From positions 2,095 through 66,094 of the IMG/VR virus record IMGVR_UViG_3300017917_003143: DNA of 64,000 nucleotides. One strand, 5' to 3'. The first letter of the stretch is position 1, and each line of letters starts with the position of its first letter. The position numbers and the translations under genes were made by a program. Positions 31,648 to 53,245 of the stretch are shown piece after piece. The notes beneath the pieces are model-generated. The model had not been told where the DNA came from, searched no databases, and saw only the letters and a program-made list of their open reading frames with translations. This DNA is from a virus.

Positions 31648-31655
31648 GGAATCTC

Positions 31656-36801: not shown

Positions 36802-36802
36802 T

Positions 36803-37233: not shown

Positions 37234-37260
37234 CAATCCCAAGAAAATCTGTTATAAATA
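37230..37260 (+). promoter_or_regulatory. sigma70-like promoter TTGACA-17-TATAAATA upstream of hsp20
   Basis: TTGACA at 37230-37235, 17 nt spacer, TATAAATA at 37253-37260. Followed by a conserved ~50 nt leader shared with the gene at 62250. Confidence 0.65.
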
Positions 37261-37321
37261 TACATGTAGGTGCCGATGGTCGGGCCTACATAGTCAAACT
37301 TGCTTAACAAAGGAGAAAATT

Positions 37322-37762: not shown

Positions 37763-37823
37763 TATAATAGCGTAAATACAGTGGAGGGCATGTTGCTCTC
37801 CACTCACTTACCAAGGGAAAAAG

Positions 37824-38138
37824 ATGTCAGATACTGCAACCCAGACAAAAACTACAATAAAACCCAGAGAGGATCTCAAAGAGCCTCCGATGTTCAAGGT
37901 GATCTATCTTAACGATAATCAAACTGCCATGGAATTTGTTATAGGAAGTCTGATTGAGCATTTTGATTACAGTCCTGTGACTGCTGAAAAACTCACGATA
38001 GATATCCACGAAGAAGGCTCAGCAGTGGTAGCTGTATTGCCATATGAACTGGCCGAACAAAAAGGCATCGAAGTCACTGTGACAGCCCGCAGTGCAGGCT
38101 ATCCTTTACAAGTCAAGCTCGAGCCTGAATCAGCTTAA
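37824..38138 (+). CDS. clpS: ClpS adaptor protein (N-end rule)
   Basis: PPMFKVIYLNDNQTAMEFVI matches the ClpS core (YKVILLNDDYTPMEFV). 104 aa. Confidence 0.8.
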   Translation: MSDTATQTKTTIKPREDLKEPPMFKVIYLNDNQTAMEFVIGSLIEHFDYSPVTAEKLTIDIHEEGSAVVAVLPYELAEQKGIEVTVTARSAGYPLQVKLEPESA

Positions 38139-38929
38139 ATAACGATCTCTATTCTTTTGGGGTAATACACACTTTTTGACCAAGGTGTGTTTCCTCGGCC
38201 TCGACAGTTGTTGACGTATCTTACACTGCCGCCCAAGTCCGTGTCAACATCACCGTGATAGTGTCCAAAGCACCAAGCCGCGACTTTGTTTTCAGTGTCC
38301 CCGGCCAGTGATCTTAATATGTAGGCATTGCCTGTGGTATTCATGCGATAGGTATCACTGAGCTCAAGATCGTGATTGACCAGTTCTAACATGGGCACAG
38401 TATGTGTGACCAACACTATCTTTTTCACGTCACGATAGGTCTGTAATCGCTGTACAGATTTGGCCAAGTAAGAAAAATCTTGTAGTGCCATGGCTTCAAT
38501 GGCATCGGCTATCTGCCGTGTGGTTTGATATCTATCTTGGAACCAGAGTTTGGTTTGATCGTAATCAATATGGGCATCAAGATCATAGGTCCACCATCCG
38601 TTGGTCCCTAAGAAAGCCACACCGTCTATGATGCATACATTGTCCTGTAGATAGGTAACATTGGGTATGTTTTCCAATTCTTCGGCCAGGCTCTTGTAAC
38701 TTTCACCAAGATCGTCTAAACTATAACGATGTTCATCATTGCCATCGATAAAAAATACGGCTCGATAGCACTCACCCAAGTGGCGCAAAGTATCTACCAA
38801 TATAGTCCGGTCTCTGCTGACATCTCCAGCTACCACACACATAGGGCTGGTGGCCATGCCAGTCCAGTCTATGGGCTCGTCCCATGTTTCGACATGTAAG
38901 TCTGAAATTAAATCAAATGCAAGTTTCAT
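38135..38929 (-). CDS. calcineurin-like metallophosphoesterase
   Basis: GDVSRDR, GNDEHR and GHYHGD metal-binding motifs in canonical order. Confidence 0.7.
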   Translation of the reverse strand: MKLAFDLISDLHVETWDEPIDWTGMATSPMCVVAGDVSRDRTILVDTLRHLGECYRAVFFIDGNDEHRYSLDDLGESYKSLAEELENIPNVTYLQDNVCIIDGVAFLGTNGWWTYDLDAHIDYDQTKLWFQDRYQTTRQIADAIEAMALQDFSYLAKSVQRLQTYRDVKKIVLVTHTVPMLELVNHDLELSDTYRMNTTGNAYILRSLAGDTENKVAAWCFGHYHGDVDTDLGGSVRYVNNCRGRGNTPWSKSVYYPKRIEIVI

Positions 38930-38953: not shown

Positions 38954-39328
38954 ATGCACATAATATTTGGCAGCCAGTCTGCACAAGAAGCCTCGGAAAA
39001 ATACACAGTATTGCCCCTGGATCAGATACAGATAGAACCCAACGGTCCTGTTATTGATACCTACTGTATCATTGAAAAAGAACAGGTCACCTTGGAAGAA
39101 ATTGGGCAGATGGAAAATTTTTCTAAACTGCATGTCAAGCTCATGGAAAATTATCGCAAAAAGAATTGGAACTTTTGTGAACAAGCCTTGGAACACTTGC
39201 ATGGTCGTTGGGGTGGCACAGTAAACACATTCTACGATGAAATTTCTCGCAGAGTAGCTAAGTACAAAGAACAGGACCCAGGTCCGGATTGGAACGGCGT
39301 TTATGAAAAATACAATCGCGGCAATTAG
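38954..39328 (+). CDS. hypothetical protein
   Basis: 124 aa. RBS AAGGAAAT. Confidence 0.45.
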   Translation: MHIIFGSQSAQEASEKYTVLPLDQIQIEPNGPVIDTYCIIEKEQVTLEEIGQMENFSKLHVKLMENYRKKNWNFCEQALEHLHGRWGGTVNTFYDEISRRVAKYKEQDPGPDWNGVYEKYNRGN

Positions 39329-40017: not shown

Positions 40018-40464
40018 ATGAACAAATGGCTGGTCGCCATAATAACAAATCTGATAATGACCAGCATCGCAGTAAGTGGTGAGCTGGTACATCAATTCAA
40101 TAGCCCGTCCTTTAGTGGTCAAGGCTACAGTTCTCACGTCTTGACAATAGAACAATTAGAAGCCACGAGAAAAAAGGCCATAGCCGATGCACAACGAGCG
40201 GCACAAGACAAAGCCGAACGCGATGCAAAAAATACCAACTTGGCCAAGTTCTTGGTCAACGTTGAAAGTCGTATCTACGCACAGCTTTCCAAACAGTTAG
40301 CAGATGCTATGTTTACCGAAAGTGGTGCGTCATCGGGTGCCATGGATTTCCAAGGTACCAATATCAGTTGGGTCAAGACAGGTACAGATGTCACGCTGAC
40401 CATTATGGAATCCAACGGTAATCGCACAGAGATTACAGTACCTATAGCGAGCTTCAGTTTCTGA
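40018..40464 (+). CDS. csgF: curli assembly protein CsgF-like
   Basis: Signal peptide. Mature N-terminus HQFNSPSFSGQG matches the CsgF QFRNPNFGG motif. Adjacent to csgG. RBS AGGAG. Confidence 0.7.
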   Translation: MNKWLVAIITNLIMTSIAVSGELVHQFNSPSFSGQGYSSHVLTIEQLEATRKKAIADAQRAAQDKAERDAKNTNLAKFLVNVESRIYAQLSKQLADAMFTESGASSGAMDFQGTNISWVKTGTDVTLTIMESNGNRTEITVPIASFSF

Positions 40465-41591
40465 TGAAAAAACTACTCATGATCATGCTCGCTACCGCTC
40501 TCTCAGGTTGTGCCAGTTTTCAAATGGATCTGCTCAAAGAAGAACCAGTGGCCGTGGCGCCAAGGCAAGATCTCATTGCCAAGCTACCTGACCTAGATGG
40601 TCCTCCTATAACCATCGCTGTATACGGATTCCGCGACCTTACAGGACAAAACAAAGCCAACGATAAACTGGCCTTGTTTTCCAAGGCTGTCACCCAAGGC
40701 GCAGAAACATTCCTAATCAAGAGCTTACAGGACAGTAAAAATTGGTTCCGTGTTGTAGAGCGTGTGGGTTTAGATAATCTCATCAAAGAACGACAGCTCA
40801 TACGCAACCAGCGTGAAGTTTATGAAGGAAAAGAAGCCAGGCCTCTCAAGCCACTCACTGTGGCCGGTGTGATGATCGAAGGCGGTATCATCGGGTATGA
40901 TTCAAACATACGCTCAGGTGGTAACGGTGCTCGTTGGTTGGGCATAGGAGCTAGCCAGCAATACAGAGTAGATGAAGTCATAATCAGTTTGAGATTGGTC
41001 AGTATCAACTCGGGCGAAGTTCTAATGTCAACCGCTGTGAGCAAGACCATATATTCCACTGCCCATAATGTGGGAGTGTTCAAGTTCTTTGATCAAGGTA
41101 CCAGGAGCCTTGAGTTAGAGAATGGTGCGGCCTTGAATGAGCCCACCACTTATGCTGTGAGAGTGGCCATTGAGCAAGGTGTTTATGAAATGATCATGGC
41201 CGGAGAGAAGAAGGGACTATGGAGATTCCGTACTGAAAAGCCCGCAGTTTCGATAGCCCCTCCTGCTGTCATTGAGGAGAAAAAAGATGATGTCAAACCT
41301 GTTGCAACAGTTGTTGCGCCCGAAGGCACAGAAAAAACAAGAACGGTCGAAGTTGCACCCGCCGCGGTCGCATCAACTAATGTACGAGTACCTAAAACAC
41401 AAACACGACGAGCTACCGTCGTTGAGTGGAGCAACATTAGAAAAAGCCAAGACATCCAAAGCGAAAAAATAACAAATCTTCGCCCAGGAGTCGAGGTCGA
41501 AATTCTAACAGAAGAAAAAAACTTTTATAACGTCCGGGCGGACGGGAAAGAGGGGTGGGTAGCAAAGCGGTTTATTAAGGCACACCAATAA
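40464..41591 (+). CDS. csgG: curli secretion channel lipoprotein CsgG-like with C-terminal SH3b-like domain
   Basis: Lipobox LSGC. VMIEGGIIGYDSNIRSGGNGARWLGIGASQQYRVDEVIISLRLVSINSGEVL closely matches the E. coli CsgG core. Extra C-terminal SH3-like domain. Confidence 0.95.
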   Translation: MKKLLMIMLATALSGCASFQMDLLKEEPVAVAPRQDLIAKLPDLDGPPITIAVYGFRDLTGQNKANDKLALFSKAVTQGAETFLIKSLQDSKNWFRVVERVGLDNLIKERQLIRNQREVYEGKEARPLKPLTVAGVMIEGGIIGYDSNIRSGGNGARWLGIGASQQYRVDEVIISLRLVSINSGEVLMSTAVSKTIYSTAHNVGVFKFFDQGTRSLELENGAALNEPTTYAVRVAIEQGVYEMIMAGEKKGLWRFRTEKPAVSIAPPAVIEEKKDDVKPVATVVAPEGTEKTRTVEVAPAAVASTNVRVPKTQTRRATVVEWSNIRKSQDIQSEKITNLRPGVEVEILTEEKNFYNVRADGKEGWVAKRFIKAHQ

Positions 41592-41617: not shown

Positions 41618-42256
41618 ATGAAAATGAAATCAAGTATGACAGGCGCTAGTAAGTTGTCGAGTAAATTACTTACCAACTTCATGTTCATAGCCATGATCAG
41701 CAGTACCACCATGGCGGTGGCCAACGAAGTTTACATAGAGCAGGTAGGAGATAATTCTACCATTGCCATCACACAGGATGGTAGCAGTAATCGTATAGGC
41801 ACAGCATTGAATCCAGCTTATATCGGTTCAGGATCCAACACAGTGACCATAGATCAGATCGGCGGAAGCAACGAATTAGACATGATCGTCAATGGATCAG
41901 CCACAAATGTCACAGTCAGTGTGACAGGTAGCAACAACATACAAACCATTGATTGTGGAACCACTGTGTCTGCTGGATGTAGTGGCAGCTCTATCACGCA
42001 GAACATCACAGGCGATAACAACACGCTGGTCGCCAATCTTGGTGGTGGTGCTAATCATACCAGCACTATGAATGTCACTGGTGATTACAACTCTGTGACA
42101 CATACCAGCACCAATACAGGAACAACATCAGCAAATATCACTGTGAGTGGAAATACCAACACTATAGGAGTCACACAAAGTGGCACGACGGCTAAGAGCG
42201 TTACTGTTAATAGCACTGGCAATCTTAACAATATTACTATCAATCAGACCAACTGA
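41618..42256 (+). CDS. curlin-repeat (CsgA/CsgB-like) secreted amyloid subunit candidate
   Basis: Signal peptide. About 6 imperfect ~20-aa repeats of the form Q-x-G-x-x-N-x...-V/I-x-Q-x-G. Confidence 0.6.
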   Translation: MKMKSSMTGASKLSSKLLTNFMFIAMISSTTMAVANEVYIEQVGDNSTIAITQDGSSNRIGTALNPAYIGSGSNTVTIDQIGGSNELDMIVNGSATNVTVSVTGSNNIQTIDCGTTVSAGCSGSSITQNITGDNNTLVANLGGGANHTSTMNVTGDYNSVTHTSTNTGTTSANITVSGNTNTIGVTQSGTTAKSVTVNSTGNLNNITINQTN

Positions 42257-43280
42257 GGCAGCAGTAGGGCGAGTTTCTGAACAAACTGGCCCTACTGAAA
42301 TAGTTAGAAATCAAAAATCATTGCCCAGCCGGGTTAATACCGCTGTTGAAAGCAATGACACCATAATTACTGCTCGGGCAAGGGCACAGTTGACCTTTGA
42401 CGACAATACCACAGTTAAAATAACTGAACAGAGTAAATTGGTCATTGATGATTTTGTGTATGATCCTCGAAAAGGATCAGGCAAGTTAGCACTCAAAATG
42501 GCGCTGGGCACTGCTAGATATGCATCAGGACAGATAGCCAAAAACAATCCACAACAGGTAGCAGTGAAAACACCCACAGCAAGTATCGCAGTTCGTGGTA
42601 CAGACTTTTCCATGACTGTGGATGAGTTAGGTCGTAGTCTTGTGATGTTGTTGCCTAGCTGTGACAACCGAGGCTGTGTCACGGGTGCTATAGAAGTATC
42701 TAACGAAGCAGGTACTGTGTTATTGGAACAAGCATATCAAGCTACCTTGGTCCGGAGTATATCAACACCACCTACTGCTCCTGTGATCGTTTCTATAGAT
42801 CAAGCCAATATCAATAACTTGTTGATTGTTGCTCCACCGCCACAAATCAAACAAGAAGAAATACAACAGGAAACCAAAACAGCTCTGGACATAAATTTCC
42901 TAAACAAAGACTTCTTAAAATACAATGCTTTAGATGAAGACGAGCTTAAAAAATTCAGCGCATTAGACCAAAATTTTCTTGACGGAGAGTTCCTGGTCAA
43001 TATGTTAGACATCAGCAACGCACAGCTGGCCATGAGCCAAGAACAGTTTGCCATGCAGAATCAGATGTTGCCAGGGTACAATGCAGCCACTGAATTAAAA
43101 TATTACATCGATGCTGATGATGACAGCAAGTTAGTGTTAGATAGATCTGTAGGGCACATCGCTAGAGTCATTGTGAATAGAGAACACAATATGATTCTCA
43201 ATATCACACAAGATGGTGTGGCCATCACACAACCGGTAAACCGTAGCGGTTCTACCACAATTACCATCGTACAAAAATAA
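42180..43280 (+). CDS. FecR-domain secreted protein
   Basis: GTG start gives a textbook signal peptide (RRLRALLLIALAILTILLS...TEA-AVG) overlapping the previous gene's 3' end. FecR-like block ASIAVRGTDFSMTV. Confidence 0.45.
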   Translation: MARRLRALLLIALAILTILLSIRPTEAAVGRVSEQTGPTEIVRNQKSLPSRVNTAVESNDTIITARARAQLTFDDNTTVKITEQSKLVIDDFVYDPRKGSGKLALKMALGTARYASGQIAKNNPQQVAVKTPTASIAVRGTDFSMTVDELGRSLVMLLPSCDNRGCVTGAIEVSNEAGTVLLEQAYQATLVRSISTPPTAPVIVSIDQANINNLLIVAPPPQIKQEEIQQETKTALDINFLNKDFLKYNALDEDELKKFSALDQNFLDGEFLVNMLDISNAQLAMSQEQFAMQNQMLPGYNAATELKYYIDADDDSKLVLDRSVGHIARVIVNREHNMILNITQDGVAITQPVNRSGSTTITIVQK

Positions 43281-43361
43281 AAGCTCATAGAATTTAATCA
43301 ATTTTTGCTGTAAATATTTCTAGCACTCTGATAATCAGAATAACAAAACGGGAGCTAGACA

Positions 43362-45356
43362 ATGAGATTTAAACAACTGCTGATGGCCGCGGCCATCGTT
43401 ATGACTTCGTCGGTGTCTGTGGCGCAAAACGCTATACTGATCAACGAATATGTCAAAGCCGGTGTAAACCAAACAACCGGCACCTTGGGTTCAGGTGGCA
43501 ATACCAATCCAGGCATACAGTATGATAGCACAGGCACAGGCACATTCAATGCCGCTTACGACTACCTAACACCTGGATCACCATTTGAAGGATTCACGGT
43601 CAAACTAGATGGCACATCCTATCGCAACAACAACGCAGGCAACCTTGCGCAGATTACAGGCACCTGGACAGGTACACCCACTGCCTCTAGTGCTGTATGG
43701 GACGGTGCTGTGAGTGGAGTGTTTGGATTGAGACATACCTATACTCTAAACTCTGGACAACAGTGGTTAGGCATACAGACTCGTATCACCGTGAACAATC
43801 CAGTGGCCAATATGTATTTTGCTCGTTACATAGATCCTGATGCACGAGCCGCTGCCGGTGACAGCAGTTCTACAGACAATGTGCGTGGTTACTCTGGTAT
43901 TCCTGGAACTAATGTGATATTCTCTGAAGCTTTGAGTTCGCGTTATGCACTAGGATTGTATACCAGCCAGGCCACAGGAACCAACACTGGGCCCAGCAAC
44001 ACCTGGAGCACTGATCCTCAAACTTATTACACAGGAGGAAGTTACACTGTAGGCCAAGGTGACCATACCATTGGTATCGCTTTTTACAGTGCTGGCTTGT
44101 CAGCCGGTGACATAGTGACTTACAACTATGCTTATATCTTTGGTCCTAACGCATTTGGTGCAGCCACAGTGGCCACTACCTCTTATGATCCCAGTGCCAC
44201 ATTTGCTGTGACTGATGTAGGTTCGGCTACTTCTGCCGCAACCACTCCAAGTGCGCCCACAGTGACTGGTACATCTACAGCAACTATAACAGTGAGCGAT
44301 ACCACTTCAGTGAACACAGCGTTGCCCGTGATCACAGGAGCAGTAGCACACCATGTCGCATCAGAAGCCACTGGAGTACAGACTATCGCTCGTGAAACCA
44401 CTACAACAACTACCACTCCTATGCGTCGTGACGTGGTGACCAAAGTACGCACCACAACTACCTACAGTGACAGTACCACAACAACCAGTGACAGTGCTCC
44501 AAGCACAGCCACTACATACAGCAACAGCGTGTCTTCCAGTGTGGCTAACGACAGTTTCTCTGGACGTGTTGATCAGATGAGTGTGTTGAGTGACTTGAAC
44601 TCTGCTATCAATCGTGGTTTGAACATGAACGCATTCCGCGGTGATGGCATACGAGGAGAAACAGGTACGCTATACATCAATGGTGCTGGTAGCAAGACTT
44701 CAGCGGCCAATGGATATCGTGCCACAGGTGACATCTATGGCATAGGCGCCGCTGTTGATGTGGATCGCGACTGGCGTGTGGGCTTGCAGTACAATCGAGC
44801 GCACACTCGTTTGGATGGTACAGACAGTAACACCAAACAGAACAAAGACCATGTTGGCTTGTTCAGCGTTTACAACATCGAAGGTGCTGTGTTAGAAACC
44901 AACATCGGACATGCTCGCAACACTATCTCAAACAATCGACGCATATCTGGCATAGACTTCTCCAACAGTCACAGTACCAACGGTGCAGACACATGGATCA
45001 GTAATCGTTTGTATTCACCTAGCATAGAAGGATTCCGTCCTTTTGTTGGTTACACCACTGGTCGTAGTACAGTCAATGGCTATAACGAAAACGGTAGCAT
45101 ACAGAGTGCTCGCAGTGTGGCCAAGGTCGCAAATAACTATGACTATGGTGAGTTGGGTGTGCGTTATGATGCCCAGATCAATGATTTTGTGTTGAGCGGA
45201 CAAGTGTCAACTACCACAGACAACTTCAAAACAGCTGGAGTGCGTGTGGCCTACAACGTGACCAAAGACGGACAGATCGCTGTGTCAGGCACACGTCAAG
45301 CCTACAACGATCAGACTACCAATACTGTCACAGTAATGGGTGTGGTTAGATTTTAA
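43362..45356 (+). CDS. Thr-rich secreted/outer-membrane protein (beta-barrel C-terminus)
   Basis: Signal peptide. Poly-Thr linkers. C-terminal alternating-hydrophobic strands ending in aromatic ...VMGVVRF, typical of OMP/autotransporter barrels. Confidence 0.5.
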   Translation: MRFKQLLMAAAIVMTSSVSVAQNAILINEYVKAGVNQTTGTLGSGGNTNPGIQYDSTGTGTFNAAYDYLTPGSPFEGFTVKLDGTSYRNNNAGNLAQITGTWTGTPTASSAVWDGAVSGVFGLRHTYTLNSGQQWLGIQTRITVNNPVANMYFARYIDPDARAAAGDSSSTDNVRGYSGIPGTNVIFSEALSSRYALGLYTSQATGTNTGPSNTWSTDPQTYYTGGSYTVGQGDHTIGIAFYSAGLSAGDIVTYNYAYIFGPNAFGAATVATTSYDPSATFAVTDVGSATSAATTPSAPTVTGTSTATITVSDTTSVNTALPVITGAVAHHVASEATGVQTIARETTTTTTTPMRRDVVTKVRTTTTYSDSTTTTSDSAPSTATTYSNSVSSSVANDSFSGRVDQMSVLSDLNSAINRGLNMNAFRGDGIRGETGTLYINGAGSKTSAANGYRATGDIYGIGAAVDVDRDWRVGLQYNRAHTRLDGTDSNTKQNKDHVGLFSVYNIEGAVLETNIGHARNTISNNRRISGIDFSNSHSTNGADTWISNRLYSPSIEGFRPFVGYTTGRSTVNGYNENGSIQSARSVAKVANNYDYGELGVRYDAQINDFVLSGQVSTTTDNFKTAGVRVAYNVTKDGQIAVSGTRQAYNDQTTNTVTVMGVVRF

Positions 45357-45358
45357 TT

Positions 45359-45529
45359 GTTAACGGCCCCAGTTGATTTTCAACCAAAGTCTTTCGTGTA
45401 CATAGTGGACTATAGTCATCACAATGTTGATGGCTATGGCTCCCTGTATACCGGTGAATGCGGCTGTGACTGCTGTTGCTGTGATACGCCATGAGGCAGC
45501 TCTTACGATTGTTCTCTTGTGTGTTTCCA
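45359..45529 (-). CDS. small membrane protein (DUF2061-like), not in ORF track
   Basis: 57 aa METHKRTIVRAASWRITATAVT...HYVHERLW. GGAG RBS 6 nt upstream on the minus strand. Found by reverse-complementing the sequence by hand. Confidence 0.35.
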
Positions 45530-45545
45530 TTTTTACTCCATTAAA

Positions 45546-45575
45546 AAAGCCCCTTACGGGGCTTTGATTATTTCT
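45546..45575. terminator. bidirectional rho-independent terminator
   Basis: AAAGCCCC-ttac-GGGGCTTT hairpin flanked by T runs on both strands. Sits between convergent genes. Confidence 0.65.
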
Positions 45576-46239
45576 TTCTTATTTCTGTTCGATAATACTG
45601 TTTGGCAGTAAGAATCACAGCACCAACGAATGGCAGTATCTTTTCTACAAAATCATGTAGCGGATCATTCCATTTGTCAATAAAAGGTTCGTGTACTATC
45701 ATATTGCCAGCTACGTAATATAAAACAAACGCACCAATATAAATCGTGCTGGGATATTTATCAAGCAGGCGTGAAACCATGGTGCTACCAAACAAGATGA
45801 TAGGTACGCTGACCAGCAAGCCGATAATGATTAGTGTCCAGTTACCACCTGCGGCTCCTGCAATGGCCAAAGCATTGTCTAGACCCATTACAGCATCTGC
45901 CATCACGATAGTGCCCATAGCACCCCAGAAGGTTGCGGCGGCTCGAACATTACTGTGATCGTTATTGTTTTGGGTAAGTTTCCAAGCAATATAGATCAAC
46001 ATGAGTCCACCGACTAGTCTTAGTCCAGGAATCATTAGCAAATAGGTCAGTGCGGCAACACAGGCAAAGCGCACAGCTACAGCACCAAAGGTACCCCAAA
46101 GCATGGCACGTTTGCGTAGGTGTTCTGGTAGTTGCTTAGACGCCATTGCTATGACGAGTGCGTTTTCACCGCCTAAGACAACGTCTATTAAGATAATGGC
46201 CACAAGAGCCCACAAGAATTGAAGCGAGAGTAATTCCAT
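45568..46239 (-). CDS. TerC-family integral membrane protein
   Basis: 223 aa with ~7 TM helices. Conserved TerC blocks (GENALVIAMA; DNALAIAGA). Confidence 0.75.
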   Translation of the reverse strand: MELLSLQFLWALVAIILIDVVLGGENALVIAMASKQLPEHLRKRAMLWGTFGAVAVRFACVAALTYLLMIPGLRLVGGLMLIYIAWKLTQNNNDHSNVRAAATFWGAMGTIVMADAVMGLDNALAIAGAAGGNWTLIIIGLLVSVPIILFGSTMVSRLLDKYPSTIYIGAFVLYYVAGNMIVHEPFIDKWNDPLHDFVEKILPFVGAVILTAKQYYRTEIRKK

Positions 46240-46365
46240 TTTAGTTCCTTTTAAAATTAAAATGGTCTCGTCTCTTTGTTTGTATACCGGGCTGGGCCGT
46301 GTTGACGATATACAAAGCCCGTTATAGGCTGACTACTCCCCGTCAAATATTTAGTTAAATATCTG

Positions 46366-48432
46366 ATGCTGAAAAAATCCACCATTAAAAAACTGTTAGT
46401 TAGCCCTTGGACTGCGCTGATCACATTGGCGCTGATTATTGGATTGAGAGTAGCCGATCCTACTTTTGTAGAAAGTGTAAGACTGCGCTATTTTGATACC
46501 TTGATCACTGCCCAAGAACCCACGACCAATGATATCTACACTGTAAACATCGATGAGGATACTATTGCCAAGTACGGACAGTGGCCGTTTGATCGTCGTG
46601 TGTATGCTAACCTTATTGAAGACTTGTACAAAAGAAATGCTGGTCTAGTCATATTTAATGTTATGATGCCTGAGCGCGATCGGTCAGGCGGCGATGGATC
46701 CTTGGCAGCCACACTCAACGAACTAGATGTCATACTGCCTAACTTGCCTGCAGATCGTATGAAAAATACACCAAGACAGCCGGGCACTGCTGTGATAGGA
46801 GCAGAATTCTCTGATCAGATAGTACAATATCCTGGCATCATAGCCAACATTGACATGCTGGAAAAACGAGCCCGAGGTGTAGGCATAGTGGCTACCTTGC
46901 CTGAAGTGGACGGTGTCAACCGTAGGATGCCTTTGGTCGTGGCAGTGGACGGCAGAGTATATCCCAGCCTGGCCATGGAAGTGTTACGAGTTTCAGCCGG
47001 CGATAGTACCACACAGATCAAGCTCAATGAACTGGGTGTGGAAAAGATGCGCATACCTGCATTTGGCCCCATCGCCACCGACAGCCTGGGACGTATATGG
47101 ATTGACTGGAGCCAGCGCAGTCACAGTGTGTCGGCTGCAAACTTGCCCAAAGATTTTGGTGGTGCTGATGTCATAGTGGGCGTGGCCGCAGGTGGATTAG
47201 GTAATCCTGTGCCCACTCCTCGTGGTGCTGTGTGGCCACATGAAGTACAGGCCGCTGTGATAGCCACAATGTTCAACGGTGTCACGATTGAACGACCTGA
47301 CTATGCTGATGGTGTTGAAATCATATTCATAGCGGTCATAGGATTGATTATTATTGGAATGTCGAGGTGGACTTATGCAGGTATTCTTATATCTATTATT
47401 GGGATCATTGCCCCTATTGTTGCCAGTAGCCTGGCTTACAGTGAATGGCGAATCCTGGCGGACGCGACAGCAAGCACGGTTGGTCTTGTTCTCGTGGCTC
47501 TGCATACTTACGGGGTTAAGTTTGTAAGCGAGTTCTTGCAAAAGCAACAGATCAAAAAACAATTTGGAACTTATCTAAGCCCAGATCTTGTAGCACAACT
47601 GCAACGCAACCCTGATCTACTGGTATTAGGTGGAGACAGTCGTGAGTTAAGTATCATGTTCACAGATGTGCGTGGCTTTACAAGTATCAGCGAACACTAT
47701 GGTAAAGACGTTCAAGGACTTACAAAGATCATGAACCGCTATATGACAGCCATGACTAAAAAGATCTTGGAAAACAAAGGTACATTAGACAAGTACATCG
47801 GTGATGCACAGATGGCATTCTGGAACGCACCCTTGGACAACACACAGCATGCCAAGGATGCTGTAAAAACAGCTTTAGAAATGTTAGGGAGTTTGGATGA
47901 GTTCAATAGAGAAGTTCAAGCAGAAGGCGTACCACCTTTTGGTATGGGCCTTGGGATCAATACTGACACCGTTGTGGTGGGTAACATGGGAAGTGATCAG
48001 CGTTTTGACTATACTTGTCTTGGTGATGGCGTCAATTTGGCTAGCCGACTGGAGGGCCAGAGTAAACCGTACGGTGTCAAAATCGTGGTGGGGGCAAAAA
48101 CTGCTGAATATGTAGCAGACGAATACCTTGTGCTGGAGCTGGATTGTATCGCTGTCAAAGGCAAAAAAGAAGGTGTCAACATCTATACTGTGTTAGGGCG
48201 TATTGATGAGTTAAACATAGCCACCGCTGACATACAGATGCACGAGTCTATGTTGGCGCTGTATCGTCAGCAGAAGTTTGATCAAGCTGCCAAGGCCTGC
48301 AACAACTTGATGGGCCGCTTTGGGGGTGCCATGGATCACTATTATGAAATGTGGATAGAGCGTTGTGGGGAAATGAAGTCTGCTGGCTTGCCCTTAGATT
48401 GGGACGGTATCTATCGAGCAACCAGCAAGTGA
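46366..48432 (+). CDS. CHASE2 sensor domain + class III adenylyl/guanylyl cyclase
   Basis: N-terminal TM with periplasmic CHASE2-like domain. Multi-TM segment. Cyclase catalytic domain (IMFTDVRGFTSISE; KYIGDAQMAFWNAP; metal-binding Asp). Confidence 0.8.
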   Translation: MLKKSTIKKLLVSPWTALITLALIIGLRVADPTFVESVRLRYFDTLITAQEPTTNDIYTVNIDEDTIAKYGQWPFDRRVYANLIEDLYKRNAGLVIFNVMMPERDRSGGDGSLAATLNELDVILPNLPADRMKNTPRQPGTAVIGAEFSDQIVQYPGIIANIDMLEKRARGVGIVATLPEVDGVNRRMPLVVAVDGRVYPSLAMEVLRVSAGDSTTQIKLNELGVEKMRIPAFGPIATDSLGRIWIDWSQRSHSVSAANLPKDFGGADVIVGVAAGGLGNPVPTPRGAVWPHEVQAAVIATMFNGVTIERPDYADGVEIIFIAVIGLIIIGMSRWTYAGILISIIGIIAPIVASSLAYSEWRILADATASTVGLVLVALHTYGVKFVSEFLQKQQIKKQFGTYLSPDLVAQLQRNPDLLVLGGDSRELSIMFTDVRGFTSISEHYGKDVQGLTKIMNRYMTAMTKKILENKGTLDKYIGDAQMAFWNAPLDNTQHAKDAVKTALEMLGSLDEFNREVQAEGVPPFGMGLGINTDTVVVGNMGSDQRFDYTCLGDGVNLASRLEGQSKPYGVKIVVGAKTAEYVADEYLVLELDCIAVKGKKEGVNIYTVLGRIDELNIATADIQMHESMLALYRQQKFDQAAKACNNLMGRFGGAMDHYYEMWIERCGEMKSAGLPLDWDGIYRATSK

Positions 48433-48783
48433 TTAGCCTTCGCCGGCAGAGGCAGTTTTTTTGTCGTCTTCGTCGGCTTTGAGGGCTTCACGGAATTTGG
48501 CATCAGCTTCGCGCTCGGTTTTTTGTTGTTCGATAACACGTTCACCTTCGATGATTTTACCACGAAGATGTAACACAACATCAACCTTTTGATTTAAACG
48601 AATTAAATCATTGTCCAGCATACGGATACGATCGATCAAGGCGATCAGCACAGTATTGGCTTCTTTTAATATGGGTTTAACTTCTTTGGTTGCCCAAGTC
48701 CACACATAGTAAATCATATAACCCATGCCGCCCGCGGCCACGATAGGGAATCCGTATTTGTTAATCAGTGCTACTAAATCCAT
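48433..48783 (-). CDS. holin-like single-TM protein, paralog A
   Basis: N-terminal MDLVALINKYGFPIVAAGGMGY TM segment then coiled coil. Paralogous to 49492..49770. Confidence 0.5.
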   Translation of the reverse strand: MDLVALINKYGFPIVAAGGMGYMIYYVWTWATKEVKPILKEANTVLIALIDRIRMLDNDLIRLNQKVDVVLHLRGKIIEGERVIEQQKTEREADAKFREALKADEDDKKTASAGEG

Positions 48784-48924
48784 TTATTTCTCCTGTTTCC
48801 AAAAACCCCAAGGGTCGTGTATTTTCTTTTGTTCTGGTTTGGGCTCATGACAATACCATATAGCTACTGATATCAAGGTCAGGCATTCTATCAGATAAAA
48901 AACCATAAAAGCTTCAAATAACAT

Positions 48925-49071
48925 TATATTGCAAGCCCTATTAAAGTGCCCACAAATATTCCAACAACAAACGCCTTAAACATATCGATGTCGTACCACA
49001 GTGGTTGATTTTTTAGATATGCTTTGGTATGCGCTGGCAAACTGTCATACCATGTGTCCCATTTACTCATG
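48925..49071 (-). CDS. small C-terminal-TM protein, not in ORF track
   Basis: 48 aa MSKWDTWYDSLPAHTKAYLKNQPLWYDIDMFKAFVVGIFVGTLIGLAI. AAGGAAAT RBS on the minus strand. Confidence 0.35.
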
Positions 49072-49347
49072 TTATTTCCTTTTTAAGATATCAAAAGTAT
49101 CTTGCGGTGTAGGTGCATTTATAAAATGCACAGTGTCGTCTTCTTCGTTGACTATGCCCATTACAGCAGGCCCATAACCACGTACAAATTTTTCCAGCGC
49201 ATCGACTTTGACCAATTGTACCTTTCCGTTGACATTGGTTAGCTTGAAAAGATCACCAGCCTGCCAGCCCAGTTTGTCAATGTTCAACTCTTCGTCCAGG
49301 ATGATGCGATTTTCTGATAAATCCCACGTATAGTCCACGTAGAGCAT
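49072..49347 (-). CDS. hypothetical protein
   Basis: 91 aa ORF in the minus-strand block. Confidence 0.4.
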   Translation of the reverse strand: MLYVDYTWDLSENRIILDEELNIDKLGWQAGDLFKLTNVNGKVQLVKVDALEKFVRGYGPAVMGIVNEEDDTVHFINAPTPQDTFDILKRK

Positions 49348-49491
49348 TTTTCTTCCTTTTTCGTTGTTACAAAATCAACTAATTTCTTGATATTCTTTTC
49401 TTGGTCGTGGTAATCTATGCACATCTGTGTCCACTCGTTCCTGTTGCAAAAAACGTGTGTGCGTTCTTGCGGGGTCCAGGTACGGGGATCT

Positions 49492-49770
49492 TTAGTCACG
49501 TCGGGCATCATTTTTGCCGTCCGCTCTAGCAATACGATTGGTGTCGGGTTTTAAACCCAATGCGTTGCTCACAACGGTATCAATACGGATAACGTCGTGG
49601 TTCATTGTTTTTACACGATTGTCTAGAGCAGTGATTATGCCCGAAAGTCCTTGCACACTGCTCATGACTCCAGCGAGTATGAATTTCAGTGTGAGGAAAA
49701 TGAAGTAACCACCAGCGCATGCCGCCGCGATCGGGAAACCGACTTCGGCCACGAGTTTGAAAAAGTCCAT
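49492..49770 (-). CDS. holin-like single-TM protein, paralog B
   Basis: MDFFKLVAEVGFPIAAACAGGYFIFL TM segment. The following VKTMNHDVIRID block parallels paralog A's IRMLDNDLIRLN. Confidence 0.5.
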   Translation of the reverse strand: MDFFKLVAEVGFPIAAACAGGYFIFLTLKFILAGVMSSVQGLSGIITALDNRVKTMNHDVIRIDTVVSNALGLKPDTNRIARADGKNDARRD

Positions 49771-49851
49771 CTTAGCTCCTTTGATCCTCTTGCGGGATTC
49801 TTTGGAGTATTTACCAAAATCTTGGTGTATTATCTATCAGGCGAAAAAAAA

Positions 49852-49880
49852 TTTGACATCAATGGAAAAATCGGCTAAAA
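49852..49880 (+). promoter_or_regulatory. strong sigma70-like promoter TTGACA-17-TAAAAT
   Basis: Perfect -35 hexamer, 17 nt spacer, TAAAAT -10. 137 nt upstream of the lysin gene in a 246 nt intergenic region. Confidence 0.75.
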
Positions 49881-50016
49881 TATAGCTTGTGTCTGTTTCT
49901 TTTGGAGCGGTTTGATTAAATATAGCTCTTTTGGAAATGTGCGCAGTTATCCGTGGGTGTGTATCTATTACATATTACTACGGTAAAAAAATAAACCTGT
50001 AAACAAGGAGGAAGTT

Positions 50017-50622
50017 ATGACAGAGACAATATCAAAGTCAGGAACGCACCAAGTTGACATGGTCAAACTTTTTGTAAGTCTGCCCCGTGTGATCGGTTTG
50101 TTGATCGTAGCATCGATCCTGATCACAGTCACAAATTTGCGTCTGGATGCTCTTGCGTCCGATATCGAAAGCCAGGCCCAGCGCCAGGGTTTCGTCAGTG
50201 TTAGCGACCGCACTCGTCAGTTAGAGTGCTTGGCTCGTAACATCTATTGGGAGTCCGCCAACCAGCCTTTTGAAGGCAAAGTAGGTGTGGCCCAAGTAAC
50301 CATGAACCGTGTGGATGATGGACGTTTTGGAAAAGACGTCTGCGGTGTGGTATATCAGAAAAACATCATCTATGAAAAGGTAGTGTGCCAATTCTCTTGG
50401 TACTGCGAACCTACTCACAAAGTACGACCCGTACACCCTGCACTGTGGGATGAAAGCATGGAAGTGGCCAAGAAGGTTCTATTAGAAGGATTCCGTCTGC
50501 CCAGCTTGAAAGAAGCTCTTTATTTCCATGCTGACTATGTAAGCCCGGGTTGGCCCAACATGATACGAGTTGCCCATTTCGGCAATCATATTTTCTACAA
50601 GAAAAAGGAATCCAAACAATGA
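50017..50622 (+). CDS. cell wall hydrolase, SleB/CwlJ family, with N-terminal membrane anchor
   Basis: NIYWESANQPFEGKVGVAQVTMNRV...FSWYC hydrolase core. N-terminal TM helix. RBS AAGGAGG. Confidence 0.8.
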   Translation: MTETISKSGTHQVDMVKLFVSLPRVIGLLIVASILITVTNLRLDALASDIESQAQRQGFVSVSDRTRQLECLARNIYWESANQPFEGKVGVAQVTMNRVDDGRFGKDVCGVVYQKNIIYEKVVCQFSWYCEPTHKVRPVHPALWDESMEVAKKVLLEGFRLPSLKEALYFHADYVSPGWPNMIRVAHFGNHIFYKKKESKQ

Positions 50623-50942
50623 GTAAGTTCTTTAACTTTTTCAGCAACCTACGTGCTAACTTTAGTCAGTGGTTGAGCGAGAGCTTGCACACAGTATCAG
50701 CAGAAACTCTGGGCTGGTTGGCAGTGATCTTGATACACGGTGCCACGGTGCCTACATTATTGGCCATACTCACCGGACTCAGTGATCGCACTCCATCAGT
50801 TGATATCATCTTGTTGATGTGGGGCGGCCTGGTGCTGTTGTTTGGTCGTGCAGTGGTGCTCAAAGATTCATTGAACATCATCACCATTGGCGCAGGCTTT
50901 ATCGTACAAGCTGTGTTAATGGCCTTGATTTTGTTCAAGTAA
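50619..50942 (+). CDS. holin-like 3-TM membrane protein
   Basis: ATGA overlap with the lysin stop. 107 aa with three hydrophobic helices. Confidence 0.45.
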   Translation: MSKFFNFFSNLRANFSQWLSESLHTVSAETLGWLAVILIHGATVPTLLAILTGLSDRTPSVDIILLMWGGLVLLFGRAVVLKDSLNIITIGAGFIVQAVLMALILFK

Positions 50943-52007
50943 AGCCCGATCCATATTGGTGCGTAATTCCAGGAGCAGGTCATCCTGGAATTCTTTACTG
51001 AAAAATCTTTTCCTATTGTGTTCGATCACAGGCAAGGCTTGCTGATAGAGATCTTGGAATTTGTCCTGAGACATGTTGGCAAGCTGATCGATCAATTCCA
51101 ACAACAACGACATGCGTTTGGTTGAATCAGTTTCATGATCGTAGCTCTCATCCCAGCAGTGATCAAACGTTTTGAAACCGTAGTCCTTTAGATACTGCAA
51201 ACTGCCCGGTGGCGCAAACAAAATAAAAGGCTGGCTCATGACCATGGGCTTGAATACCTTTTCGGTAAGATAGATTTTGTCAGTGTCAAACAGCGTTTCG
51301 GCTACCAAGTGTACCGCGGAATCCACAGCATCTGGAATGTCAATCTTGGCACTGTATGTTGGGTCCACTTGTGTGCCGTCCCAGTTGTGCCGTATCATGT
51401 TCTGATATTGGCGACAGTGCGCCAGCAATTCTTTTCTATAGATACGTGTTCCGTCCTGGGCACGACTGTATAATAGGAATCTGTGTTGGCAATTGGATTT
51501 GTCAATGGGTGCTAAATCTTGATAATGTTCCCAATGCCGGAACCAGTCACGGGCAGTCAGTCCGTGCCACCAATAGTAACAGTCAACAAATCCATGCTCG
51601 TTTAAGATCCTGATGTCTTGGCTGTTTAACTCACTGTGGCAGATGATGGGCCGATCTTCCATGACTAAACGCATGAACTCAAAAACATCACAGTCATTGG
51701 CATGTTTTTTAAGATTGAATTCTATGGCCTTTCTTTGGTTTTCTCCTTGGATCAGTAGATTTTTTTGGTCACACAGAGTTTTTCTATAAGTATCCATATA
51801 ATTAAGATCCAATGGTTCCTGATCATGCATGACGATCCTTTTGAAGCTGATAAAGTCTTTGTTAAAGTCGGATTGAGTGACTGCAAATGGTTCTAAATTA
51901 TGGAGATCTTTTGCCCCATGTGGGCGGAATATCATCACAAGGTTATTGGTTTTTTCGTGTCCGTATTCATGGACGAAAAAATCGTAAAAGTTATCAACGG
52001 AGAACAT
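50916..52007 (-). CDS. hypothetical protein, paralog of 17952..18866 (glycosyltransferase-like?)
   Basis: Shares the GFKTFD...DESYD C-terminal block and several upstream blocks with 17952..18866. Confidence 0.55.
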   Translation of the reverse strand: MFSVDNFYDFFVHEYGHEKTNNLVMIFRPHGAKDLHNLEPFAVTQSDFNKDFISFKRIVMHDQEPLDLNYMDTYRKTLCDQKNLLIQGENQRKAIEFNLKKHANDCDVFEFMRLVMEDRPIICHSELNSQDIRILNEHGFVDCYYWWHGLTARDWFRHWEHYQDLAPIDKSNCQHRFLLYSRAQDGTRIYRKELLAHCRQYQNMIRHNWDGTQVDPTYSAKIDIPDAVDSAVHLVAETLFDTDKIYLTEKVFKPMVMSQPFILFAPPGSLQYLKDYGFKTFDHCWDESYDHETDSTKRMSLLLELIDQLANMSQDKFQDLYQQALPVIEHNRKRFFSKEFQDDLLLELRTNMDRALLEQNQGH

Positions 52008-52009
52008 AA

Positions 52010-53245
52010 ATGAATATCGGTTTTATTGGCTTAGGTAAATTAGGTTTAGACTGCGCAGAAGTCTTTGCAGAACGCTACTCAGTCTATGGTTATGATATAT
52101 ATCCACGCTACAGCGACACAGTCAAAGTTTGCACCAATGTGGAAGAAGTCATTGACCACAGTGACTGGTTGTTCATTGCTGTACCTACTCCACATGCCGA
52201 AGGCTATGATGGGTCAGTACCGAGCTCACACATGGAACCCCGGGATTTTGGCCATGAAGCTGTCAAGCAAGCCATTGAGTATGTGAATGCCTATGCCAAG
52301 GAACCCAAGCGTGTTGTATTGATCTCTACTGTGCTACCAGGCACCACCCGACGCCACTTTGCTACTCTGTTGGACAAGCGTCACCAGTTCTTATACAACC
52401 CGTATTTGATTGCCATGGGTTCTGTGAAGTGGGACATGGCCAATCCTGAGATGGTAATGATTGGTACAGAAACAGGTGATCCTAGTGAAATGCGTGATCT
52501 CATTGATTTGTACCGACCATTGATGAAAAACAACCCACGCTATGTCACAGGTACCTGGGACGAATGCGAAGCCATCAAGATTTTCTACAACACATTCATC
52601 TCAGCCAAGGTTGGTTTGGTAAACATGATCCAAGACTTTGCCTTAAAAATTGGCAACATCAACGTAGACGTTGTGACAGATGCCTTGGCACAATCCACCA
52701 TGCGTATCATGGGACCCAAGTACATGACAGCAGGCATGGGTGATGCAGGTGCTTGCCACCCACGTGATAACATCGCCCTGCGTTGGTTGGCCGAAGAATA
52801 CGACATTGGATATGACTTGTTTGATACCATCATGCATGCTCGTGAAGTGCAGGCCAAGAACCTTGCGCTGTTCTTGGTAGATCAAGCTAAAACAAACAAT
52901 CTGCCTATCGTGATACACGGCAAAGCATACAAGCCAGATGTTCCCTACTGTATTGGAAGCTATTCTACGCTGATTGGATACTACATCAATGAAGCAGGTT
53001 TCACAGTGAAATACCTGGATCCCTTGGCCGATGACAGCACTGACGTGATCGAAGCTGTCAAAGGTGCTTGTGTATTGCTCATGGCACACAATCGACAGAT
53101 CACATACGGTTACACCGGAGATGTGCGTGATGACACTTTTTATGCACCCATAGAAGCAGGATCTATCATCGTAGATCCATGGCGCAAACTCAATGACATA
53201 GCAGGATACAAAATTATCCATTATGGTAATACAAGAAAAAACTAA
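52010..53245 (+). CDS. nucleotide-sugar dehydrogenase (UDP-glucose/GDP-mannose dehydrogenase family)
   Basis: N-terminal Rossmann IGFIGLGKLGL. VVLISTVLPGTT block. Catalytic Cys region GMGDAGACHPRD resembles GGxCFxKD. Confidence 0.65.
   Translation: MNIGFIGLGKLGLDCAEVFAERYSVYGYDIYPRYSDTVKVCTNVEEVIDHSDWLFIAVPTPHAEGYDGSVPSSHMEPRDFGHEAVKQAIEYVNAYAKEPKRVVLISTVLPGTTRRHFATLLDKRHQFLYNPYLIAMGSVKWDMANPEMVMIGTETGDPSEMRDLIDLYRPLMKNNPRYVTGTWDECEAIKIFYNTFISAKVGLVNMIQDFALKIGNINVDVVTDALAQSTMRIMGPKYMTAGMGDAGACHPRDNIALRWLAEEYDIGYDLFDTIMHAREVQAKNLALFLVDQAKTNNLPIVIHGKAYKPDVPYCIGSYSTLIGYYINEAGFTVKYLDPLADDSTDVIEAVKGACVLLMAHNRQITYGYTGDVRDDTFYAPIEAGSIIVDPWRKLNDIAGYKIIHYGNTRKN

Follow-up and report, generated by a model that had tools for sequence, protein, structure and literature searches.

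Results

We analysed a stretch of viral DNA of 64,000 nucleotides (nt), positions 2,095 to 66,094 of the IMG/VR record IMGVR_UViG_3300017917_003143 (hereafter the window), around a gene for a protein of 688 amino acids (aa). An original prediction, made from the letters alone, had read this protein as a phage-borne nucleotidyl cyclase with a CHASE2 sensor and had paired it with a divergently encoded TerC-family membrane protein; both open reading frames (ORFs) lie exactly where it had placed them. We think it likely that the cyclase is the receptor adenylyl cyclase of an already published phage envelope module, which also comprises curli components (type VIII secretion system, T8SS) and a FecR-domain protein, and that TerC is unrelated cargo inserted beside it. 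The cyclase is laid out as follows.

46366 to 48432, + strand: predicted CHASE2-sensor class III adenylyl cyclase, 688 aa (Pfam, PHROG, PDB alignments and an AlphaFold2 model)
About aa 15 to 35: first transmembrane segment, TM1 (hydropathy and AlphaFold2)
aa 20 to 328, nt 46423 to 47349: periplasmic CHASE2 domain (Pfam PF05226)
aa 314 to 400, nt 47305 to 47565: transmembrane segments TM2 to TM4 (hydropathy and AlphaFold2)
aa 427 to 608, nt 47644 to 48189: catalytic domain (Pfam PF00211)
aa 620 to 688, nt 48223 to 48429: three-helix C-terminal tail (AlphaFold2)

Architecture of the predicted receptor cyclase

The two domains named in the original prediction are both recovered by Pfam well above its cut-offs: CHASE2 (PF05226) scores 126.9 bits against a cut-off of 26.3 and is matched over profile positions 2 to 257 of 257, and Guanylate_cyc (PF00211) scores 72.6 bits (cut-off 21.9) at aa 427 to 608, while PHROG 35576 spans the protein at full length (6.5e-240). 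Hydropathy peaks at aa 9 to 35, 314 to 332 and 338 to 356, and the AlphaFold2 model places helices at 15 to 48, 314 to 334, 336 to 361 and 368 to 400. The predicted topology thus comprises TM1, a periplasmic CHASE2 domain, three transmembrane helices that lead into a long helix, the cyclase domain and the three-helix tail, which would be the canonical layout of a CHASE2 receptor with a cytoplasmic output domain. The model, a monomer, has a mean predicted local distance difference test score (pLDDT) of 79; its CHASE2 part reaches 84 to 97 and the tail is confident. Foldseek matches are confined to the catalytic domain, with template-modelling scores (TM-scores) of about 0.65 relative to the target. 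Among homologs of 38 to 69% identity the CHASE2 domain has a mean conservation of about 60% and many invariant residues, a pattern that points to strong purifying selection on the periplasmic part of the protein.

Catalytic residues and predicted product

The best PDB matches of the cyclase domain (phmmer) are Cya2, CyaC and CyaB, with E-values of 1e-30 to 6.7e-37. The motifs FTDVRGFT and GDAQMAFWNAP, quoted in the original prediction, are present and contain both metal-binding aspartates: D434 and D480 align with the metal-binding Asp of CyaC and Cya2, and N557 and R561 with the transition-state Asn and Arg of the same two enzymes. K476 aligns with a Lys of CyaC, whereas Cya2, a guanylyl cyclase, has Glu there, and T550 aligns with a Thr of CyaC. 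We take K476 and T550 to be the substrate-specificity positions, and D434, D480, N557 and R561 to have the roles just named, on the basis of the CyaC and Cya2 structures. Adenylyl cyclases combine a specificity Lys with Thr or Asp, guanylyl cyclases Glu with Cys or Gly. Across 82 phage homologs D434, D480, K476 and R561 are invariant and K598 is invariant or nearly so; position 550 is Thr in 63, Asp in 18 and Ser in one, and position 557 is Asn in 64 (63 of them paired with Thr550) and Ser in 18. The enzyme is therefore predicted, from its residues, to be an active, ATP-specific adenylyl cyclase of class IIIb type. Where cAMP and cGMP had both been offered as products, Lys476 and Thr550 speak for cAMP and against cGMP. 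The homologs with Asp and Ser carry the canonical Lys...Asp specificity pair, yet have Ser at the transition-state Asn position. A response to bicarbonate is typical of class IIIb cyclases.

The cyclase is the last gene of a curli and FecR module

Upstream of the cyclase lie four genes of a curli-like system, and downstream of it two genes for small proteins, which we call hol116 and hol92.

40018 to 40464, + strand: CsgF-like T8SS component, 148 aa (Pfam CsgF, 4e-15)
40464 to 41591, + strand: CsgG-like outer-membrane lipoprotein channel with C-terminal SH3 domain, 375 aa, lipobox LSGC (Pfam CsgG, 1.3e-53; SH3_3, 2.8e-10)
41618 to 42256, + strand: curlin-repeat (CsgA/B-like) secreted protein, 212 aa (Pfam Curlin_rpt, 4.3e-06)
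42180 to 43280, + strand: FecR-domain envelope protein with N-terminal signal or anchor, 366 aa (Pfam FecR, 7.7e-12; PHROG 37870, 2.5e-98)
48433 to 48783, - strand: hol116, small membrane/coiled-coil protein, 116 aa (PHROG 18771, 7.7e-31)
49492 to 49770, - strand: hol92, small membrane/coiled-coil protein, 92 aa (PHROG 18771, 8.5e-34)

The CsgF, CsgG and curlin-repeat genes adjoin one another on the + strand and the FecR gene follows the curlin gene, whose product also matches the NCBIfam CsgA model, below its cut-off (1.5e-05). Full-length homologs of the cyclase were found in cultured phages (tblastn) only in Methylophilales phage Melnitz (40% identity) and Pelagibacter phage HTVC008M (37%); megablast of window positions 42000 to 50700 against cultured phages gave no match. 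In both phages the genes are co-directional and run from two small proteins through CsgF, CsgG, a curlin-repeat protein, FecR and a curlin-like or hypothetical gene to the cyclase, which comes last. This cluster of T8SS/curli genes with FecR and an adenylate cyclase was described in pelagiphages by Wittmers et al. (2022, mSystems; PMC9599517), who also found it expressed in ocean metatranscriptomes, and CsgGF alone had been noted earlier (Zaragoza-Solas et al., 2020, PMC7029224; Buchholz et al., 2022, PMC9004378). The cyclase is hence the terminal gene of an already published phage module. The text of Wittmers et al. mentions no CHASE2 domain, tail domain or specificity residues (PMC9599517).

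A scan of IMG/VR gave at least 588 related cyclase loci, of which 80 were fetched for context (loci used for comparison are designated by L numbers); nearly all of these 80 have the cyclase linked to the module. Co-occurrence was counted in 53 loci with at least 6 kb of sequence upstream and at least 3 kb downstream, and CsgF, CsgG, curlin, FecR and both small proteins were present in 53/53. The tie of the cyclase to the curli-like system just upstream, which had been no more than suggested, therefore holds for every component. The linkage persists across at least three gene arrangements, which argues for selection on the linkage itself, beyond frozen synteny. The coupling to the FecR gene is tight: this gene is the conserved upstream partner of the cyclase, stands immediately before it in the closest relatives, and in at least seven phage loci the two genes overlap or abut (ATGA).

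Two variations in this gene set may be recorded. The SH3_3 domain of the window's CsgG follows a linker of about 70 residues; classical CsgG is not known to have an SH3 domain. In L172 a regulator of GerE/LuxR type (Sigma70_r4-like; 14631 to 15305) stands divergently beside CsgF, recalling the CsgD of classical curli operons.

The small downstream proteins

The genes hol92 and hol116 had been taken for a holin block. They are paralogs, both members of PHROG 18771, with a common N-terminal motif, GFPI..A..G.GY, and a helix of the form (L/I)D.R(I/V)..(M/L).(N/H)D.IR(L/I). Neither matches a holin family or a kinase family in Pfam, NCBIfam, PHROGs or PADLOC. Hol92 is the most conserved protein of the module, reaching 91% identity where the cyclase is 58% identical, and among cultured phages it occurs in only six records, all of them cyclase-bearing (Melnitz and HTVC008M). 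In these two phages the small proteins sit immediately upstream of CsgF; because this is the position of the small 'HK' proteins in the published module, we infer that they are the same genes, and hol116 is, from its position, probably one of the 'HK' genes of Wittmers. The two are best described as conserved components of the module. A cell-wall hydrolase lies beyond them.

50017 to 50622: SleB-type cell-wall hydrolase (Pfam)

Apart from L050, the window's closest relatives alone have SleB in the vicinity of the module. With no holin family matched, a link to the curli module in 53/53 loci and an endolysin neighbourhood that is not conserved, the holin block of the original prediction is not supported.

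A hypervariable slot and a mobile TerC cassette

In the window, FecR and the cyclase are separated by three further genes and the leader of one of them.

43281 to 46355: strain-specific insert in the slot between FecR and cyclase, 3,075 bp (blastn against L083-L086)
43362 to 45356, + strand: secreted protein like an outer-membrane protein (OMP), 664 aa, with signal peptide, Thr-rich linker and C-terminus ...VRF (ORF)
45360 to 45530, - strand: DUF2061-like small membrane protein, 56 aa, second gene of the TerC cassette (Pfam DUF2061, 9.7e-4, below cut-off)
45546 to 45565: GC-rich hairpin between TerC and the DUF2061-like gene, intrinsic-terminator-like in both directions
45568 to 46239, - strand: TerC/YjbE-family membrane protein, 223 aa, about six hydrophobic segments, first gene of the cassette
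46240 to 46353, - strand: structured 5' leader of TerC, candidate compact (three-way-junction) Mn2+ riboswitch of yybP-ykoY type

The closest relatives (L083-L086) share the flanking genes over more than 10 kb, have a cyclase that is 94% identical and run from FecR across 17 nt into the cyclase. In blastn, homology to them stops at 43280, the FecR stop codon, and restarts at 46356, which defines a 3,075-bp insert made up of the 664-aa OMP-like gene, the DUF2061-like gene and TerC. Its boundaries are clean: the FecR stop codon on one side and a point 10 nt before the cyclase start on the other. The FecR to cyclase junction ranges over 66 loci from -4 bp (an overlap) to 5,607 bp and usually holds extra co-directional curlin-repeat genes. 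This range, together with the variable contents, identifies the junction as a hypervariable cargo slot, with the conserved genes on either side probably serving as recombination arms. Other occupants are OMP-like genes, TerC and, in L172, a discoidin-domain (F5_F8_type_C) protein. The 664-aa protein is matched by nothing in Pfam, NCBIfam, PHROG or PDB, and its homologs in L013, L047, L054 and L082 sit in the same slot or module, in the last of these between CsgF and CsgG. A C-terminus such as ...VRF is typical of outer-membrane beta-barrels, and we infer from its sequence that the protein may be of this kind.

TerC itself is securely assigned (PF03741, 151.3 bits, cut-off 27.8; NCBIfam TIGR03717, YjbE, 210.4 bits, cut-off 134.8). 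Many relatives at 75 to 96% identity are found in various phage-like contexts. The most similar (96% identity; L167-169) lie beside rIIB, AhpC and CMD genes with no cyclase, and those of L170/171 among AhpC, Bax1-I and CMD genes; a TerC that stands in the slot, divergent from the CHASE2 cyclase, is seen in L172/173, L069 and L074. Over positions 45382 to 46341 the window is 81.6% identical at the nucleotide level to L167-169, which defines the mobile unit as the TerC upstream region, TerC, the hairpin and the DUF2061-like gene, and in L168 and L169 TerC is likewise followed by a conserved 59-aa DUF2061-like ortholog. The hairpin, just past the TerC stop, folds with a stem of 8 bp (-14 kcal/mol, z = -3.05) and is followed by a U6 run when read on the - strand and by a T-rich tail when read on the + strand; of the two boundaries proposed for the cyclase, this hairpin is thus real and terminator-like in both directions, whereas the holin identity of the other is not borne out. 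TerC is absent from the closest relatives, travels in a cassette of its own and adjoins the cyclase in 2/80 fetched viral loci, and the divergent pairing of the two genes as a unit has to be given up: TerC is an insertion, unrelated cargo and no partner of the cyclase.

The leader of TerC

The spacer between TerC and the cyclase measures 126 nt and is nearly all TerC 5' leader; because TerC brings this leader with it, the two genes have no common control region between them. Further copies of the leader were located in L167 (7885 to 8000), L172 (7875 to 8000), L069 (9345 to 9458, - strand), L203 (about 5131 to 5235), L227 and L282. Seven distinct phage leaders share the invariant blocks GGGGAGUAG, UCGUCAACACG, CCGGU and AGACC, with three covarying helices between them. 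In the alignment of these seven copies, canonical pairs fill 94% of pair cells and compensatory changes are seen in 11 pairs; the covariation score is 0.46, compared with 0.21 in shuffled alignments (0/500 reach the observed value), and slid controls do not exceed 0.10. Pairing reaches 97 to 100% in helices Pa, Pb and Pc, which contain 10 compensatory pairs, but is weak in P1 (76%).

The blocks follow the same order as in the leader of E. coli alx, which is established as a Mn2+ riboswitch of the yybP-ykoY class and has a three-way junction (PMC12153347, PMC13594968); our mapping of L1 (GGGGAGUAG ... GAGACC) and L3 rests on the comparison with alx and on PMC12153347. The name of the NCBIfam model TIGR03717, 'R_switched_YjbE', implies a yybP-ykoY leader for the family. 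The Rfam models returned nothing at gathering thresholds on the whole window and only spurious matches driven by the terminator hairpin when run permissively on the leader, and these negatives are uninformative for yybP-ykoY, because the positive control, E. coli alx (L174 13280 to 13600), failed as well. The TerC leader is thus probably, judging from its covarying alignment, a compact element of yybP-ykoY type and a candidate for Mn2+ response. A scan of viral contigs with the leader pattern gave 119 matches, of which three precede TerC and the rest are chance or lie before other genes.

The - strand sequence upstream of the leader lies inside the 5' end of the cyclase gene, and a scan for sigma-70 promoters found sites no more numerous than in shuffled sequence. 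Two further elements were seen nearby: an inverted repeat, CAGATATTTAACTAAATATTTG, at window positions 46344 to 46365, which abuts the cyclase start codon, and an AAATA that is invariant 7 to 9 nt upstream of the leader GGGG in all seven TerC leaders. The latter may be a promoter or operator element.

Bacterial relatives

A scan of bacterial genomes, one per species, yielded at least 599 relatives of the cyclase, of which the best 80 were examined. They come mostly from Alphaproteobacteria (Bradyrhizobium, Mesorhizobium) and are 30 to 38% identical over their full length, including the tail. Searched with profiles of the phage proteins, 29/80 of these bacterial loci have a FecR-domain gene in the neighbourhood of the cyclase, in many cases just before it or overlapping with it, whereas CsgG, CsgF, curlin, hol92 and hol116 are near the cyclase in 0/80. 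FecR and CHASE2 cyclase therefore form an old bacterial cassette, and only in phages does it appear to have been joined to a T8SS.

The C-terminal tail and neighbouring genes

The tail of the cyclase, about 65 residues with the consensus H..ML..YR...W..A....G....Y....ERI.....PP..DWDGV..AT.K, is present in 72/80 bacterial cyclases, and standalone homologs occur in 17 related loci. A profile built from 19 sequences found nothing significant in PDB or Pfam, and by this measure we regard the tail as an undescribed domain. The window has a standalone copy, next to a gene for a metallophosphoesterase of divergent sequence.

38954 to 39328, + strand: 124-aa protein ending in a standalone, 65-residue paralog of the cyclase tail (blastp, 2e-10)
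38135 to 38929, - strand: sequence-divergent metallophosphoesterase, 264 aa (PHROG 1649 'metallo-phosphoesterase')

The metallophosphoesterase adjoins the tail paralog in 17/53 loci. All five metallophosphoesterase motifs are recognisable by eye, no Pfam or PDB sequence matches it, and the names given to its relatives at source are generic. Its AlphaFold2 model (pLDDT 91) comes closest to M. tuberculosis PptH (TM-score 0.69 to 0.73), followed by MPPED2 (0.54) and Rv0805 (0.37). As a cAMP phosphodiesterase it is a weak candidate, its fold being nearer to PptH than to the cyclic-nucleotide phosphodiesterase Rv0805; that it takes part in the turnover of cAMP is conceivable but not supported.

The cyclase had been placed between structural and lysis genes, which does not fit what lies upstream: the curli/T8SS genes are preceded by ClpX (399 aa), ribosomal protein bS21, Hsp20 and ClpS (35602 to 38138, just upstream of the module), and by genes of replication and nucleotide metabolism. 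The bS21 gene (36803 to 37015) was assigned through the PF01165 match of a 70-aa protein at the same position in L084. Elsewhere the window encodes an isocitrate lyase (25438 to 26649, + strand; Pfam ICL, 336.8 bits), which we consider an unusual auxiliary metabolic gene, an SPFH/Band 7 protein (31560 to 32453), a radical SAM protein (10352 to 11434, - strand), a fatty-acid desaturase (61406 to 62116), UvdE (56887 to 57915) and a UDP-glucose dehydrogenase (52010 to 53245). A second variable slot lies at 50916 to 52007 (- strand), where blastn shows a gap from 50941 to 52009 and a 363-aa gene stands in place of the 397- or 419-aa genes of L083-L086.

The DnaB-like helicase of the window is closest to those of jumbo myophages (PA5oct, 53%; Atu_ph07, 47%), and homologous cyclases sit on contigs of up to 378 kb. 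Helicase likeness and contig size together indicate that the module is also present in a lineage resembling jumbo phages, for which we found no report in the literature searched.

Discussion

How might such a module work? We envision a scenario whereby the CHASE2 domain, held at the inner membrane, would receive a periplasmic or envelope signal during infection, which would probably reach it by way of the FecR-domain protein and the secretion apparatus or jointly with them. A precedent by analogy is the relay through NsrA in Sinorhizobium meliloti, in which the CHASE2 cyclases CyaD1, CyaD2 and CyaK reportedly receive a plant protein signal via this outer-membrane protein (PMC13001267). The signal would pass through the transmembrane bundle and a signalling helix to a dimeric cyclase domain, which would raise cAMP. 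Since no cyclic-nucleotide-binding ORF was found among about 50 scanned in the window, this cAMP would act on host cAMP receptors. The parts of the module would be the two small bitopic membrane proteins, the CsgG/CsgF channel, the secreted curlin-repeat proteins, periplasmic FecR and the cyclase; the leader, TerC and DUF2061-like cassette, together with the OMP-like gene, would have been inserted into the hypervariable slot between the last two.

Several observations weigh against this scenario. The co-occurrence of the module genes among related phages is partly inherited, and L074 (1 to 10000), the only clear exception, has a cyclase and adjacent TerC with no CsgF, CsgG, FecR or curlin within 10 kb upstream. 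Because 0/80 bacterial loci carry curli genes, a coupling to the T8SS would be without cellular precedent. In S. meliloti the FecR-domain protein SMc02177 is dispensable for signal perception and is itself a target of cAMP-Clr (PMC5498481); being dispensable and cAMP-induced, FecR may be an output and not a co-sensor. On the enzymatic side, the active-site loops have low confidence in the AlphaFold2 monomer, and covarying Asp and Ser replace Thr550 and Asn557 in 18/82 homologs (Melnitz/L001, L024, L038, L047, L054 and others).

The alternatives differ in what they make of the sensor and of the product. Conceivably, the cyclase is a largely constitutive generator of cAMP that serves the takeover of host metabolism via CRP, its CHASE2 domain being mainly an anchor and the curli linkage historical. 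The intact catalytic residues, the lack of a phage cAMP receptor among the roughly 50 window ORFs and a wealth of auxiliary metabolic genes (isocitrate lyase, ribonucleotide reductase) would suit such an enzyme. We nevertheless find this quite unlikely, given a CHASE2 domain under strong purifying selection at about 60% mean conservation, a linkage kept through at least three rearrangements and a FecR-cyclase coupling conserved from bacteria to phages. Far less probable is a product other than cAMP, whether from a Pycsar-like cCMP/cUMP cyclase or as a decoy against cyclic-nucleotide immunity. PADLOC models of PycC do match the cyclase domain, the best being PDLC00734 (8.8e-24, 82 bits), but this match covers 136/374 profile positions and would be expected from class III cyclase domains in general; among proteins of solved structure, the best relatives are purine cyclases, and the Lys/Thr pair is of the ATP type. 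Membership in Pycsar fails because the residues are of the purine type and the window holds no effector gene, with nothing of PycTM or PycTIR type beside the cyclase.

Other alternatives turn on the neighbouring genes. The module might be a device for the timing of lysis, analogous to T4 lysis inhibition, in which the two small proteins act like a holin and its antiholin, envelope state or superinfection is sensed by the cyclase and the CsgGF pore, and cAMP or protein contacts set the clock. In favour of it one may cite the build of hol92 and hol116 (92 and 116 aa, an N-terminal hydrophobic segment followed by a coiled coil), their constant company with the module, the 246 nt that separate the small proteins from the SleB-type hydrolase in the window, and the speculation of Buchholz et al. 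that the CsgGF pore regulates lysis timing (PMC9004378). Against this stand the failure of the small proteins to match a holin family (Pfam, NCBIfam, PHROGs), the restriction of SleB to the closest relatives and L050, so that endolysin adjacency is not conserved, the lack of a segment in hol116 that passes the standard hydropathy threshold, and the absence of the T4 late-promoter motif TATAAATA near the module genes. We judge a lysis-timing device unlikely, and a role of the cyclase in lysis timing is speculation. Very doubtful is a functional divergent pair of TerC and cyclase that senses metal or envelope stress. Its divergent arrangement recurs in L069, L074 and L172/173, the junction sequence is common to the window and L172, and TerC proteins metalate exported proteins at the Sec translocon (PMC10550928), which is suggestive in a slot full of exported proteins; yet TerC is missing from the closest relatives and from 78/80 fetched loci, its 96%-identical copies adjoin AhpC, CMD and rIIB and not a cyclase, and it carries its own leader. 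The chance that the 3-kb segment is host DNA misassembled to phage DNA is next to nil. Its one mark of foreignness is a tetranucleotide profile at the 96.7th percentile of 3-kb windows, whereas more than 50 independent viral contigs and two genera of cultured phages show the cyclase in the same synteny, the GC content, third-position GC (GC3) and codon adaptation of cyclase and TerC lie within about 1.3 standard deviations of 44 phage genes, the TerC cassette is found in other phage contexts beside rIIB and tRNA arrays, and the insert boundaries are clean. The comparison of GC and codon usage that the original prediction had proposed thus sides, like synteny, with a phage-borne cyclase.

Within our preferred reading, that of a receptor cyclase in an envelope module, a more elaborate version is rather improbable. 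The whole module might form an envelope-spanning phage signalling pathway in which the pore, the curlin and OMP-like proteins, FecR and the small proteins report to the cyclase and a cAMP pulse alters the infection, with the slot providing interchangeable surface 'antennae' and the standalone tail acting as a soluble regulator. If so, an external or envelope event could act as trigger, as when fibres assemble, sibling cells come into contact or a second phage attacks, and the pulse would change, for example, lysis timing, superinfection exclusion or host metabolism.

Receptor cyclases of phages are abundant, with at least 588 viral loci and thousands of metagenomic proteins, and are expressed in the ocean (PMC9599517). 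The CHASE2 receptor nature of the enzyme and its pairing with FecR recast the published annotation of an 'iron regulator plus AC' (adenylate cyclase) as a receptor module, whose FecR/CHASE2-cyclase pair goes back to an ancestral cassette of bacteria that has been studied in one case, S. meliloti. From phages of SAR11 and OM43 the range of the module extends into a lineage like that of jumbo phages, and the candidate leader and TerC cassette, phage-borne and probably Mn2+-responsive, is added to what such phages carry. A corollary of the TerC result is caution in inferring function from divergent gene pairs.

Comparison with known systems

The cyclase domain itself (aa 427 to 608) has its best sequence and fold matches, at E-values of 1e-30 to 1e-29, in Spirulina CyaC (1WC0/1WC1), P. 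aeruginosa CyaB (3R5G) and Synechocystis Cya2 (2W01). CyaC shares with it the metal-binding Asp, the Asn/Arg and the Lys...Thr pair, whereas Cya2, as a guanylyl cyclase, has Glu in place of the Lys, and the sensor modules of all three are unlike CHASE2. PycC of Pycsar has the class III cyclase fold in common, hence partial PADLOC matches, but the window's enzyme differs in its CHASE2 receptor architecture, its purine-type residues and the lack of an effector gene in the window.

Among receptors, the S. meliloti cyclases CyaD1, CyaD2 and CyaK combine CHASE2 with a class III cyclase as the phage protein does, and a FecR gene lies beside cyaD1: cyaD1 (SMc02176) and the FecR-domain gene smc02177 have consecutive locus tags (PMC5498481). 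There an envelope signal reportedly enters through an outer-membrane protein (PMC13001267). The bacterial loci, unlike the phage loci, are without T8SS or curlin (0/80). The S. meliloti cyclases act through the CRP-like regulator Clr (PMC5498481, PMC13001267); no such regulator was found in the window. In the 'BiofilmReg' operon of Burkholderia, which encodes a LysM/FecR periplasmic protein and a CHASE2 histidine kinase (PMC5192318), the gene of the FecR-domain periplasmic protein is directly upstream of that of the CHASE2 receptor, as in the phage, but the output is a histidine kinase with a response regulator instead of a cyclase.

The structured leader has its counterparts in E. coli alx and V. 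parahaemolyticus terC (PMC12153347, PMC13594968, PMC13274385), where such a leader likewise precedes the gene of a TerC-family exporter. The phage leader keeps the alx-like order (GGGGAGUAR, then UCGUCAnnACG-hairpin-CCGGU, then GAGACC) and a three-way-junction layout, and differs from alx in being shorter (about 100 nt), in missing one alx hairpin and in its weak P1.

The nearest known system as a whole is the pelagiphage module of Wittmers, with which the window shares gene set and order: small 'HK' protein(s), CsgF, CsgG, a CsgA/B-like protein, FecR, an optional second CsgA/B-like protein and the cyclase. It differs in that its small proteins are convergent and downstream, whereas those of pelagiphages are upstream, in that its slot holds an OMP-like gene and the TerC cassette, and in its replication genes, which resemble those of jumbo myophages. 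The system belongs, then, to an already described class; the specific coupling of TerC to the cyclase is not real, and what sets the window apart from the published module is the arrangement of the small proteins, the cargo in the slot and the lineage that carries it.

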